NCBI GenBank assembly: GCA_005805305.1
Contig: SYMW01000294.1
Coordinates: forward strand, 1-16,579
DNA length: 16,579 nucleotides
Direction: 5' to 3'
Source: Verrucomicrobiales bacterium
GTDB taxonomy: Bacteria > Verrucomicrobiota > Verrucomicrobiia > Limisphaerales > F1-80-MAGS106
Below the pieces are notes generated by a model. That model was not told the DNA's origin. It saw nothing but the letters and a program-made list of their open reading frames with translations, and did not search any database. Both the position numbers and the translations under genes were made by a program. This document shows, piece by piece, positions 6,981-8,677 of this stretch (the stretch's first letter is position 1; each line of letters starts with the position of its first letter).

Positions 6981-7160
6981 TCAATTGCCCGAGCTCGGTT
7001 TCGAAGAGGATTGGCTCTTCCGGCGCGCCACCGCCTGTTTCAACAGGAACTCGATCTGCCCGTTGACGGAGCGGAGCTCCTCTTGCGACCAGGATTCCAG
7101 TTCCGACCACAGATTGGGATCGATGCGCAACAAGAATGTCTTTCTGGATTCGTTCGCCAT
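6981..7160 (-). CDS. Arc/MetJ-type ribbon-helix-helix DNA-binding protein (59 aa)
   Basis: MANESRKTFLLRIDPNLWSELESWSQEELRSVNGQIEFLLKQAVARRK matches the Arc-family pattern (K.F.LRLP.EL…RS.NAEI…LL). Only the C-terminal third of the 152-aa track ORF is real; the N-terminal part overlaps the upstream gene in another frame. Its ATG overlaps the upstream TGA (TGATG) by 1 nt, suggesting translational coupling. Confidence 0.6.
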   Translation of the reverse strand: MANESRKTFLLRIDPNLWSELESWSQEELRSVNGQIEFLLKQAVARRKSQSSSKPSSGN

Positions 7161-7687
7161 CAACCACGCTCCTTCCCGCGTTGGAGCCGGCGTCGAAGAT
7201 CGGCCACGAAACGACCCGGATTTTCCGGCGAAATGACGATGATGTCGCCGGGAACCCGGATGACCACCGCGTTTTTGCGATCCGTCACATAGGCTTGGAA
7301 CTTGCCAAGCCTCTGGTTGCGAAAGCGCCCATGCATCGCGAACAGTCCGTCGTTTCCATAAGTCTTCCAAGCGCGTTCGCAGGCCTTGGGATCGACCTCG
7401 GCGGACTCGATGTCCAAGAGACGAATCCGATTGCTCCAAAAGCTCCGCGCGACGAGCAGTTCATCGTCAGCCAACTCATATCGGCGCACCCTCCAAAGCG
7501 AAGCGCCACCCAGAATGCCAACCACCACCAGGGTCGGAATGATCCAGATCGGCCCTCGCTGGCCCCGGCCTTCCTTCCCGAGCACGAAGGAGCTTCCAAT
7601 GGCCACGGCGAGCATCAAGGCGCTCAGGATGCCGGTGATAAGCCAGGTCTGAAGGCCCCACGGCGCGCTGTAGGAACAGTGGCGCAT
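7160..7687 (-). CDS. Membrane protein with two N-terminal TM helices and a bacterial PH (bPH, YdbS/YdbT-like) domain
   Basis: Two hydrophobic helices (LQTWLITGILSALMLAVAIGSSFVL and PIWIIPTLVVVGILGGASLW) precede a roughly 110-aa domain (RRYELADDELLVARSFWSNRIRLLDIESAEV…VVIRVPGDIIVISPENPGRFVADL) typical of bacterial PH-like domains. Its start lies 6 nt after the SPFH gene's stop. Confidence 0.6.
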   Translation of the reverse strand: MRHCSYSAPWGLQTWLITGILSALMLAVAIGSSFVLGKEGRGQRGPIWIIPTLVVVGILGGASLWRVRRYELADDELLVARSFWSNRIRLLDIESAEVDPKACERAWKTYGNDGLFAMHGRFRNQRLGKFQAYVTDRKNAVVIRVPGDIIVISPENPGRFVADLRRRLQRGKERG

Positions 7688-7693
7688 ATCGGG

Positions 7694-8602
7694 TCAATGA
7701 TAAAGCGTGCCGGTGTTGATGACGGGAGTGACCTCCGCCTCGCCGCAGAGCACAACAAGGAGGTTGCTCACCATCGAGGCCTTTCGCTCCTGATCAAATT
7801 CAATCACACCCTTGGCCTTGAGTTCGATGAGAGCCATTTCCACCATGCTCACCGCCCCGTGCACGATCTTGGTGCGCGCGGCGATGATCGCCTCCGCTTG
7901 CTGCCGCCGTAGCATCGCCTGCGCGATCTCGGGCGCGTAAGCCAGGTGCGTGATCCGGGCCTCCTCGACGAGAACCCCCGCCTTGGACAACCGGTCTTGA
8001 AGCTCGGCTGTCAACGCCGAGTTCACCTCGTCGCCACCGCCGCGCAACGTGAACTCGTCCTCCTCCCCTTGGTCGTACGCATAAGCCGAGGCCAGATGGC
8101 GCACCGCCGATTCGCTTTGGACCTGGACGTAATGCTCGTAATCGTCCACATCGAATGCCGCTTGCGCCGTGTCGGCGACTTTCCAAACCACCACGGCGGC
8201 GATCTCGATCGGGTTGCCGCGCTTGTCGTTTACCTTAAGCTTCTCGCCATTTAGATTGCGCATCCTCAAGGAAATCTTGCACCGCTTTGAATAGAATGGA
8301 TTGGTCCAGTGAAAGCCGCTGCGGCGAACGGTTCCCTTGTAAGCTCCAAACAAGATCATCACCCGCGACTCGTTGGGTTGAAGAGTGAAGAAGCCGGCCC
8401 AGGAAAAAAAAGACAGCACCAAGCTGAGGATTCCCAAGACCAAAGGCAGCGCGTAAGAGTCGCCGCGATCCCCGCGGATGCCCGCGTTGATGAGCATGAT
8501 GATGCCGCCAATTTTCAGCAGCAACGTGACAAAGAGCAACGGCCAGCCACTGACGGTGGATCCGGGCTGCTCGACGGACGCTGGGAGAGTGGTCGATTTC
8601 AT
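7694..8602 (-). CDS. SPFH/Band-7 (stomatin/prohibitin/flotillin-like) membrane protein
   Basis: An N-terminal hydrophobic anchor (two TM-like segments) is followed by the SPFH core: …VNDKRGNPIEIAAVVVWKVADTAQAAFDVDDYEHYVQVQSESAVRHLAS…. A coiled-coil Ala/Glu-rich region follows (LQDRLSKAGVLVEEARITHLAYAPEIAQAMLRRQQAEAIIAARTKI). Confidence 0.85.
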   Translation of the reverse strand: MKSTTLPASVEQPGSTVSGWPLLFVTLLLKIGGIIMLINAGIRGDRGDSYALPLVLGILSLVLSFFSWAGFFTLQPNESRVMILFGAYKGTVRRSGFHWTNPFYSKRCKISLRMRNLNGEKLKVNDKRGNPIEIAAVVVWKVADTAQAAFDVDDYEHYVQVQSESAVRHLASAYAYDQGEEDEFTLRGGGDEVNSALTAELQDRLSKAGVLVEEARITHLAYAPEIAQAMLRRQQAEAIIAARTKIVHGAVSMVEMALIELKAKGVIEFDQERKASMVSNLLVVLCGEAEVTPVINTGTLYH

Positions 8603-8635
8603 GTTTTTTTCTCGCGGTTGATGGATGCCAATGGA

Positions 8636-8652
8636 GATATCTCTGTGATATC
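8636..8652 (-). promoter_or_regulatory. Tandem palindromic hexamers GATATC-N5-GATATC overlapping the -10/TSS; candidate operator for the operon's own Arc-like repressor
   Basis: Two GATATC sites (8636-8641 and 8647-8652) lie 11 bp apart, one helical turn. RHH repressors classically bind tandem short repeats overlapping their own promoter. Inference only. Confidence 0.25.
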
Positions 8653-8677
8653 ATAATGAAATCATTTGCAATGTCAA
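8650..8677 (-). promoter_or_regulatory. Sigma70-type promoter for the SPFH-bPH-RHH operon: -35 TTGACA (8672-8677), 16-nt spacer, -10 TATGAT (8650-8655)
   Basis: The minus strand reads cgcagtttgattgTTGACAttgcaaatgatttcatTATGATatcacagag. The -35 is a perfect consensus and the -10 is a 5/6 match, in an AT-rich island about 45 nt upstream of the SPFH ATG. Confidence 0.45.

Follow-up and report, generated by a model that had tools for sequence, protein, structure and literature searches.

In a 16,579-nucleotide stretch of contig SYMW01000294.1 from a Verrucomicrobiales bacterium (assembly GCA_005805305.1; we refer to this whole stretch as the window), three adjacent minus-strand genes encode an SPFH/Band-7 membrane protein, a bacterial PH-domain (bPH_5) membrane protein, and a 59-aa Arc-like ribbon-helix-helix (RHH) protein. 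We analyzed this cassette by comparing it with related loci. The comparison makes it probable that a widespread SPFH scaffold and a dedicated, minimal Arc-like RHH autorepressor form a module, which in the window has a bPH_5 gene between its two constituents. The evidence comes from a putative 30-bp operator at the cassette promoter, from its co-occurrence with the RHH gene, and from the conserved order of the SPFH and RHH genes.

Three tightly packed genes under purifying selection

The SPFH gene (7694-8602, minus strand; 302 aa; Pfam Band_7, E=2.3e-29) is followed by the bPH_5 gene, a lineage-specific accessory (7160-7687, minus strand; 175 aa; Pfam bPH_5, E=1.6e-17), and by the RHH gene, which encodes the putative autorepressor (6981-7160, minus strand; 59 aa; Pfam RHH_5, E=4.8e-5). 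An earlier annotation, made from the letters of the DNA and referred to here as the sequence-only reading, had described three packed minus-strand genes with a 6-nt and a TGATG junction, and all of these are present. The gap between the SPFH and bPH genes spans 7688-7693, and the stop codon TGA of the bPH gene (7162-7160) shares A7160 with the start codon ATG of the RHH gene (7160-7158). In the frame of the RHH gene, a longer open reading frame (ORF) of 152 aa could start at a TTG; the ATG is the start in all homologues and in independent gene calls.

The same reading had asked whether the 59-aa ORF is conserved. Indeed it is: its homologues are 64-83% identical, and in comparisons with five Verrucomicrobial relatives, its ratio of nonsynonymous to synonymous substitution rates (dN/dS) was 0.05-0.19. 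The corresponding values were 0.07-0.13 for the SPFH gene and 0.19-0.36 for the bPH gene, which is the fastest evolving of the three. All three cassette genes are under purifying selection.

A putative tripartite operator overlaps the cassette promoter

Upstream of the SPFH gene, the -35 hexamer TTGACA (8672-8677, minus strand) and the -10 hexamer TATGAT (8650-8655, minus strand) are separated by a 16-nt spacer. The near-consensus promoter that the sequence-only reading had seen here (8677-8650) stood up to scrutiny: it has 11 of 12 matches and is the sole sigma-70-like site of this quality, since no other site in the 16.6-kb window exceeds 9 of 12. The claim that it sits in an AT-rich island was correct as to the low GC content (33% in 8630-8690 compared with 60.5% in the window), but not as to an island, because the region of about 60 bp comprises just the promoter and the operator.

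The operator itself had been described as GATATC-N5-GATATC. This repeat (8652-8636) was confirmed; it occurs a single time in the window, and 200 dinucleotide-preserving shuffles produced no match. Its extent was underestimated, however: a third box, GATTTC, had been missed, and the whole is a 30-bp tripartite palindrome, TGATTTCATTATGATATCACAGAGATATCT (8635-8664, minus strand), a putative operator and the only such site in the window. On the minus strand, the boxes are GATTTC at 8663-8658, GATATC at 8652-8647, and GATATC at 8641-8636, spaced 11 bp from center to center. The palindrome covers the spacer, the -10 hexamer, which overlaps the central box, and the expected start site. The outer arms of the window operator, GATTTC and GATATC, are not mutually complementary. 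Owing to the palindromic nature of the operator, the plus strand also carries a weaker promoter-like site (8625-8654; ATGCCA-18-TATCAT with an upstream TG, 9 of 12 matches); no plus-strand gene lies close behind it.

The operator is present wherever the RHH gene is intact

We surveyed 90 related loci from about ten phyla for the operator. The upstream regions of five Verrucomicrobial relatives could not be aligned with that of the window, save for a TTGAC-like -35 hexamer followed by GATTTC-N5-GATATC-N5-RATATY. Over the whole family, the site reads tGAT(a/t)TC-N4-TGATATCA-N4-GATAtc and spans 30 bp. Its consensus is a palindrome centered on the nearly invariant TGATATCA, with the central hexamer GATATC in 84 of 88 loci, and two sites (loci L054 and L075) are perfect 30-bp palindromes.

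With a 30-nt weight matrix, the region upstream of the SPFH gene exceeded the 99th percentile of 2674 control windows in 85 of the 90 loci. Two further loci have the site 1.8 kb upstream of SPFH, ahead of an ABC-2 gene pair, which brings the number of site-bearing loci to 87 of 90. Upstream of SPFH, the two-box pattern reached 1.5 per kb, a 137-fold excess over the remainder of the loci (0.011 per kb). Furthermore, the third box and the T and A flanking the central box were conserved, though they had not been used for seed selection.

The loci that lack the site are the same ones that lack the RHH gene: L028 and L061 have no RHH gene, and L033 has a decayed RHH-like ORF. The site was present in all 86 assessable RHH-positive loci and in none of the three RHH-negative loci, and the exact probability of such a split is about 9e-6. 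In line with the earlier claim of an autoregulated cassette, this co-occurrence suggests, at the level of sequence comparison, that the cassette is very probably autoregulated via the GATATC repeats.

A recognizable sigma-70-like promoter was detected at 36 loci. At 28 of them, including the window, its -10 hexamer overlaps the central box, either as TATCAT within the box or as TATGAT five bases upstream of it; the latter form is the one seen in the window. A TTGAC-like -35 hexamer precedes the operator in the relatives.

The SPFH and RHH genes form the conserved unit

The three window proteins served as queries against the ORFs called in the related loci; gene order was evaluated over 83 loci and gene neighbors over 92. 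An RHH homologue was the next same-strand gene downstream of SPFH in 80 of the 83 loci, usually 4-80 nt after the SPFH stop codon, and two look-ups begun from RHH proteins both led to SPFH-adjacent genes. There is one SPFH gene per locus. The bPH gene, by contrast, was confined to Verrucomicrobial loci (13 of 83, later 17 of 92), where the triads keep the 6-nt and the 1-nt-overlap junctions and the flanking genes vary. A distant bPH homologue was found outside any cassette. The idea of a conserved SPFH, bPH, and RHH triad accordingly holds in Verrucomicrobia but not beyond. Since the RHH gene follows SPFH almost throughout and bPH is only Verrucomicrobial, we conclude that the conserved module is SPFH plus RHH, with bPH as a Verrucomicrobia-specific insert.

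Most other lineages have nothing in place of bPH. In five Betaproteobacterial or Pirellulales loci, the middle position is taken by a multi-pass membrane protein of about 165 aa with a match to DUF1648, the domain found in SdpI/YfhL. In two Actinobacterial loci (L039, 486-3624; L066, 474-3525), the operator is followed in order by an ABC-2 ATPase, its permease, SPFH, and RHH. Because the operator lies ahead of the ABC-2 pair as well as of SPFH and RHH, this exporter appears to belong to the regulated unit. An ABC-2 system was also seen just downstream of the cassette in two Verrucomicrobial loci (L096, 4417-6519; L097, 2522-4691), where it has no operator of its own.

Clustering of all ORFs (90 aa or longer) located up to about 4 kb from the cassettes in the 92 loci yielded no conserved neighbor other than the Verrucomicrobial bPH. 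NfeD, FtsH, and toxin-like genes were absent from the conserved neighbors in this clustering. At L095 (2497-3433), a frameshift or a sequencing error breaks the SPFH gene into two ORFs (188 and 110 aa), with the operator, bPH, and RHH intact. At L075 (4959-6650), the RHH frame stays open for 563 codons. An RHH fusion protein was considered for this locus and rejected, since the ORF runs antisense through a glutamyl-tRNA synthetase-like gene; a lost stop codon, an artefact, or an assembly error accounts for it.

The small protein resembles the Arc repressor

More than 1300 RHH homologues were found, mostly 57-65 aa long. The assignment of the small protein to the Arc/CopG-type RHH proteins, already made by the sequence-only reading, is supported by matches to RHH families and by an alignment with Arc. 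RHH_5 and ParD_like were matched by all 35 homologues tested, and orthologues from several lineages exceeded family cut-offs (Deinococcus, RHH_5, 29.5 versus 26; Parabacteroides, Arc, 24.4 versus 20.4; Bacillus thuringiensis, HicB, 25.1 versus 21). Alignment of the family profile with P22 Arc by hhalign placed KTFLLRI...RSVNGQIE in register with PQFNLRW...RSVNSEIY (E=0.002). This sets T8, L10, and R12 of the RHH protein opposite Q9, N11, and R13 of Arc, which are its base-contacting residues. The corresponding alignment with Mnt was weak and covered helix 2 only.

Among 35 RHH sequences, 17 columns are invariant, and K7, F9, R12, P15, R30, S31, N33, G34, and Q35 fit a strand-helix-turn-helix pattern. 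The core is followed by a variable, low-complexity tail of 10-30 residues with no conserved columns, and the protein has no sensor domain.

The operator array also occurs outside SPFH cassettes

Metagenome contigs were searched for the strict form of the array, TGATWTC-N4-TGATATCA-N4-GAWATCA. At least 80 loci were found, with a chance expectation estimated at well below one. An SPFH gene lies downstream of the array in just 13 of the 80 metagenome loci listed, and we withdrew the notion that the array is a unique signature of SPFH operons. In seven listed loci (L114, L116, L136, L141, L145, and L149 among them), the gene of a small RHH paralogue directly adjoins the array without SPFH; examples of such stand-alone RHH genes with their arrays lie at 876-1149 in L114, 656-914 in L145, and 1085-1338 in L149. 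These paralogues share the LLLR strand and an RS(V/L)N(G/Q)QIEF helix, and they match the Arc and RHH_5 models. Since the array follows RHH even without SPFH, it is tied to the RHH clade and not to SPFH.

In three of the stand-alone loci, the array is located between the RHH gene and a divergent conserved protein of 203-268 aa (roughly 255 aa) with no Pfam match. The protein reads ...GRWYV(S/T)HSGLL...GYGDADPSNVS...AETRAVNRALRKAYGIG..., and its 203-aa copy comes from a 1080-nt contig. Together with the RHH protein, it may represent another module using the same regulator-operator pair.

Two other settings of the array were observed. About 18 listed metagenome loci have a conserved ORF-like stretch that contains three TGATATCA boxes in 11-bp phase (L101, 5221-5250; L104, 1064-1093; L105, 494-523; L113, 7501-7530; L137, 3051-3080; and about 13 more). 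This stretch would read ...LSHWL(E/D)Q(D/V)DIxVISxRYQ... and adjoins a (GAGACA)n or (TCTCTG)n microsatellite. In addition, long tandem arrays of an 11-bp unit with TGATATCA were found with no SPFH nearby (L115, 3123-3196; L127, 2323-2385; L132, 5341-5403; L159, 10075-10249; L173, 6293-6344); that of L159 consists of two blocks with at least six copies each. These tandem arrays are reminiscent of the iteron or centromere-like arrays to which other RHH proteins bind.

The frequency of the strict array outside the cassette, including its tandem and ORF-like forms, would fit an explanation in which the palindrome is not the target of the RHH protein. The palindrome would then serve some other factor as a binding site or form a DNA or RNA structure, and the RHH protein would have a task other than DNA binding, for example as a structural partner of the SPFH cage that replaces NfeD. 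The perfect palindromes of L054 and L075, with their mirrored deviations, are hairpin-like, and the SPFH subfamily has no NfeD partner, which also agrees with such an explanation. We nevertheless consider it very improbable. The presence of the array and that of the RHH gene match perfectly within the family, and the array follows those RHH paralogues that have no SPFH neighbor. The predicted start site lies inside the palindrome, which hence would not be transcribed as a whole, and in the window the two outer arms could not pair, as described above. An RNA element at 6700-9000 was rejected, since an Rfam scan of this region yielded chance-level matches only and no Rfam family matches it. Finally, three boxes in 11-bp phase suit cooperative RHH dimers, and cooperative binding of RHH dimers to phased boxes is known for Arc, Mnt, CopG, and omega.

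A model of negative feedback

We therefore return to the RHH protein as the probable autorepressor of the SPFH operon. According to this model, the three genes would be cotranscribed from the promoter at 8677-8650. The RHH protein, the last and smallest product, would bind to the three GATATC-type boxes as several neighboring dimers on one helix face. Its binding would occlude the -10 hexamer and the start site, exclude RNA polymerase, and repress the whole operon, including the RHH gene. Because the RHH gene is the last one and is translationally coupled, the protein would repress its own synthesis together with that of SPFH and bPH, and such negative feedback could provide dosage homeostasis for the SPFH scaffold and for any membrane partners encoded with it. 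Repression would likely be relieved by titration, by proteolysis, or by a protein partner, since the RHH protein has no ligand-binding domain.

Several observations weigh against this model. First, the array is not exclusive to the cassette, and other proteins could in principle use such arrays. Second, 54 of the 90 loci have no recognizable sigma-70 promoter at the site, so that the promoter-occlusion geometry is not established everywhere. Third, the RHH protein of the window scores 23.5 bits with RHH_5, just below the 26-bit cut-off. Fourth, the AlphaFold2 monomer of the RHH protein shows two helices and a low-confidence N terminus with no N-terminal strand, and Foldseek found no match for it; this monomer model is uninformative because RHH proteins fold as obligate dimers. 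Fifth, covariation between the beta-strand and the central box was weak (p=0.04) and came from cases that are not phylogenetically independent; we did not use it as evidence.

The SPFH protein is widespread and has a conserved C-terminal motif

More than 8000 homologues of the SPFH protein were found, and the best 120 of them are 66-100% identical. In a profile scan of one genome per species, relatives were detected in at least 587 species genomes of Verrucomicrobiota, Planctomycetota, Acidobacteriota, Gamma- and Betaproteobacteria, Actinomycetota, Bacillota, Aminicenantes, Riflebacteria, and others. Annotated records extend this range to Deinococcus, Qipengyuania, the Bacillus thuringiensis group, Parabacteroides, Phocaeicola, and Prevotella. 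Across phyla, identity is 55-85%.

The Band_7 match (103.1 bits versus a cut-off of 23.6) covers residues 73-245. In the AlphaFold2 model, which has a mean confidence (pLDDT) of just 66.6, helices 19-46 and 51-68 form a hairpin, followed by the SPFH core, a helix at 224-263, and a disordered tail. Foldseek identified human stomatin as the best PDB match of this model (E=1.7e-6) and also retrieved the HflK/C, prohibitin, erlin, flotillin, and QmcA cages; HflK/C complexed with FtsH is among the structural neighbors. Searches of PDB by sequence and by profile with the SPFH and RHH proteins returned nothing or chance chromodomain matches. An identity as HflK or HflC was rejected, with scores of 27.8 bits for TIGR01933 and 23.2 bits for TIGR01932 against cut-offs of 159 and 134, and with no hflK-hflC pair at hand. 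The mean number of lysine and arginine residues is 1.6 in the N-terminal tail, 0.8 in the loop, and 3.3 after the second helix, a distribution that weakly suggests that the SPFH domain faces the cytoplasm. The accessory bPH protein matches bPH_5 (PF10882) with 63.8 bits against a cut-off of 22.5 over residues 69-167, and in its translation two N-terminal hydrophobic helices precede this domain.

The SPFH protein of the window has the conserved C-terminal tail ...NTGTLYH. The corresponding motif, G[TS]LY, was found in 86 of 87 operator-bearing loci; the exception is the Parabacteroides locus L087, which has GTLHH. The three loci without an intact RHH gene and operator also lack the motif, and their SPFH proteins end in GSFHH, GSGRS, and GTLST. 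Loss of the motif alongside loss of RHH may mean that the SPFH tail and the RHH protein are functionally linked, or these may simply be cassettes in decay.

A functional link of this kind would go beyond dosage homeostasis. The SPFH and RHH proteins could form an envelope-surveillance circuit, present in many bacterial phyla, in which the SPFH assembly controls the repressor: the G[TS]LY tail could tether the repressor to the membrane, or the assembly could determine whether a membrane protease, such as FtsH, degrades it. Operon activity would in that case reflect the state or occupancy of the scaffold. The RHH protein has just its variable tail where a sensor could be expected, its surface is unusually conserved given the 17 invariant columns, and its pairing with SPFH is far stricter than that of usual regulator-target pairs. 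The charge distribution would place the SPFH domain in the same compartment as the RHH protein, and the HflK/C-FtsH complex is among the structural neighbors. There are also precedents for membrane proteins acting on regulators: HflK/C modulates the degradation of lambda CII by FtsH, PspA holds PspF, and SdpI sequesters SdpR. The C-terminal correlation, however, comes from three loci. In solved SPFH cages the C terminus builds the cap, and such a role would explain the conservation of the motif without contact to the RHH protein. Moreover, the same operator is found with the stand-alone RHH paralogues, which have no SPFH neighbor. Altogether, we regard signal coupling through the SPFH cage as a tentative and rather unlikely extension of the autorepression model. 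If it applied, scaffold occupancy or membrane damage would be converted to transcription of the scaffold and of lineage-specific cargo (bPH_5, DUF1648, or ABC-2 exporter), which would provide the first defined input, output, and regulon for an SPFH subfamily.

The cassette is unlikely to be a defense or toxin-antitoxin system

The sequence-only reading had further suggested that the cassette was possibly horizontally acquired and of a membrane-stress or defense type, and no support was found for recent acquisition or for a defense function. Its GC content (0.56-0.61) and its GC content at third codon positions (0.72-0.77) equal those of the remaining window, and its neighbors are ordinary chromosomal genes. 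The patchy spread across phyla, at 55-70% identity, suggests old transfers. A PADLOC scan with the three cassette proteins and the upstream MORN protein gave no match at E values up to 0.1, an SPFH profile scan of 2.9 million viral contigs revealed no relatives, and the cassettes have no conserved defense neighbors.

These results also bear on the idea that the cassette is an anti-phage or toxin-antitoxin-like module, in which the RHH protein, in the manner of type II antitoxins, would repress the operon and counteract membrane damage by an SPFH or bPH effector. In RefSeq, RHH orthologues of Qipengyuania and B. thuringiensis are indeed named "toxin-antitoxin system HicB family antitoxin", the ParD_like and HicB models of Pfam match the RHH protein weakly, and the distribution is patchy. 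At locus L084 (1-6696), on the 31-kb plasmid pDrdIV of Deinococcus wulumuqiensis, the SPFH-RHH pair is surrounded by genes for AbiEii/AbiEi, AbrB-Fic, an IS5 transposase, and ImmA/IrrE-HTH. This is the sole clearly mobile or defense-like context among the loci. Elsewhere there is no conserved defense or mobile neighbor, and the contexts are mostly housekeeping ones, e.g., rho, rplQ, purD, and suf genes. The SPFH protein has a scaffold fold without a toxin domain, and its high identity across phyla is accompanied by strong purifying selection. Among the RHH partners, only Band_7 and bPH_5 were recognized, and no toxin domain. The RHH tail is short and unconserved at the position where antitoxins carry their toxin-binding domain. 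The HicB name looks like a misannotation that reflects a match at the level of the RHH fold alone; the name "PTS ascorbate transporter subunit IIC", given to the RHH protein in one GenBank record of a metagenome-assembled genome, looks like another. The orthologues with such names include L085 (3725-3916), L086 (3716-3880), and P0187. With no PADLOC or viral relative either, a toxin-antitoxin or defense role is highly unlikely, and autorepression of a scaffold operon remains the reading that we favor.

As to the function of the structural genes, their similarity to known protein kinds suggests, by analogy, a role in membrane protection, and the membrane-stress role mentioned by the sequence-only reading can reasonably be inferred.

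Other genes of the window

Besides the cassette, the window contains uvrB and genes for an aminotransferase, a radical-SAM enzyme, a HisKA-REC-cyclase protein, a MORN protein, and a giant collagen/Kelch protein. The 565-aa hybrid of HisKA, receiver, and adenylate/guanylate cyclase domains (5229-6926, plus strand) is encoded convergently with the cassette. Its stop codon is 54 nt away from that of the RHH gene, and both units may share a terminator region. In the giant protein, an unusual surface-type product of a 2038-aa ORF (10429-16545, minus strand), about 15 matches to the collagen triple-helix repeat are combined with CBM_5_12 carbohydrate-binding modules and a Kelch beta-propeller at the C terminus.

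Significance of the SPFH-RHH pairing

None of the ingredients is new by itself: SPFH scaffolds, Arc-like repressors, and autoregulated operons are known. Apparently undescribed is their combination, in which SPFH and RHH genes are strictly paired in about ten phyla and accompanied by a near-invariant tripartite operator. In a full-text literature search, which left most subscription journals outside, we found no paper linking SPFH with RHH, Arc, HicB, or CopG, and a 2026 survey of Pseudomonas SPFH proteins does not mention the pairing.

Bacterial SPFH proteins are widespread, and the function of most of them is poorly understood. The cassettes define an orphan subfamily by a two-helix-anchored SPFH protein, an obligatory Arc-like partner gene, and a nearly invariant 30-bp operator. 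For this large subfamily, the predicted regulator-operator pair offers an experimental handle and a candidate regulatory logic, and its carriers include cultivable, genetically tractable taxa (the Bacillus cereus group, Parabacteroides, Deinococcus, and Qipengyuania). Examples of the pair are WP_000660677/WP_001085171 of B. thuringiensis or B. cereus and WP_211744627/WP_005854106 of Parabacteroides distasonis. The variable accessory genes for the PH-domain membrane protein, the DUF1648 protein, and the ABC-2 exporter are candidate clients of the scaffold. In addition, the systematic misannotation of the RHH protein in public records, as a HicB antitoxin or a PTS subunit, can now be flagged.

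Comparison with known systems

SPFH proteins are known from operons with NfeD-type partners, such as stomatin/PH1511-PH1510, QmcA-YbbJ, FloA/YqfA-YqeZ, and FloT-YuaF (Hinderhofer et al. 2009, PMC2636767). The cassette resembles them in that a tight operon encodes an SPFH protein with an N-terminal membrane anchor and a small partner dedicated to it. It differs in that no NfeD gene is found in or near the approximately 90 cassette loci, the partner is a predicted cytoplasmic DNA-binding RHH protein, and the anchor is a two-helix hairpin. The same classification includes subfamilies SPFH6-12, for which no members are documented and no partner is given (Hinderhofer et al. 2009, PMC2636767). The SPFH family of the cassette may be one of these small subfamilies.

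With type II antitoxins (CopG, ParD, and the C-terminal domain of HicB), the small protein shares a predicted RHH fold and likely autorepression via promoter repeats. The cassette differs from type II toxin-antitoxin systems by having no toxin-type partner, no toxin-binding extension, no PADLOC match, and no usual mobile or defense context. The HflK/C-FtsH-lambda CII, PspA-PspF, and SdpI-SdpR systems likewise link a membrane scaffold with a small cytoplasmic regulator; their regulators have other folds, and the likeness is a pure analogy.

In Bacillus subtilis, the sigma-W genes for membrane protection include yqeZ-floA-yqfB, ydbST, and yfhLM/sdpI and guard against membrane-active antimicrobial peptides (PMC8144471). 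Among their products are the SPFH protein FloA, the PH-domain proteins YdbST, and YfhL, a paralogue of SdpI. The cassette variants hold the same kinds of proteins, namely SPFH, bacterial PH-domain, and DUF1648 proteins, and some variants also contain ABC-2 exporters. In the details, the PH domains belong to different Pfam families, bPH_5 in the cassette and bPH_2 in YdbS/YdbT. Furthermore, the cassette genes would form one operon controlled by a dedicated RHH repressor and not by an extracytoplasmic function sigma factor.

The closest parallel on the regulatory side is offered by Arc and Mnt of phage P22, RHH tetramers that act on the approximately 21-bp immI operators. The cassette RHH protein is likewise minimal, with about 50-60 aa and no sensor domain, and it shares with Arc the x-F-x-L-R...(G)RS(V/M)N(S/G)(E/Q)I signature in register. 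As in the phage, the putative operator is composed of symmetric sub-sites spaced by about 11 bp and overlaps the promoter that it would control. The RHH protein of the window falls below membership in the Pfam Arc family, whereas its Parabacteroides orthologue passes. In contrast to the two half-sites of the P22 operators, the cassette operator comprises three boxes over 30 bp, and the RHH gene is chromosomal, the last gene of a membrane-protein operon, and conserved together with its operator in about ten phyla.

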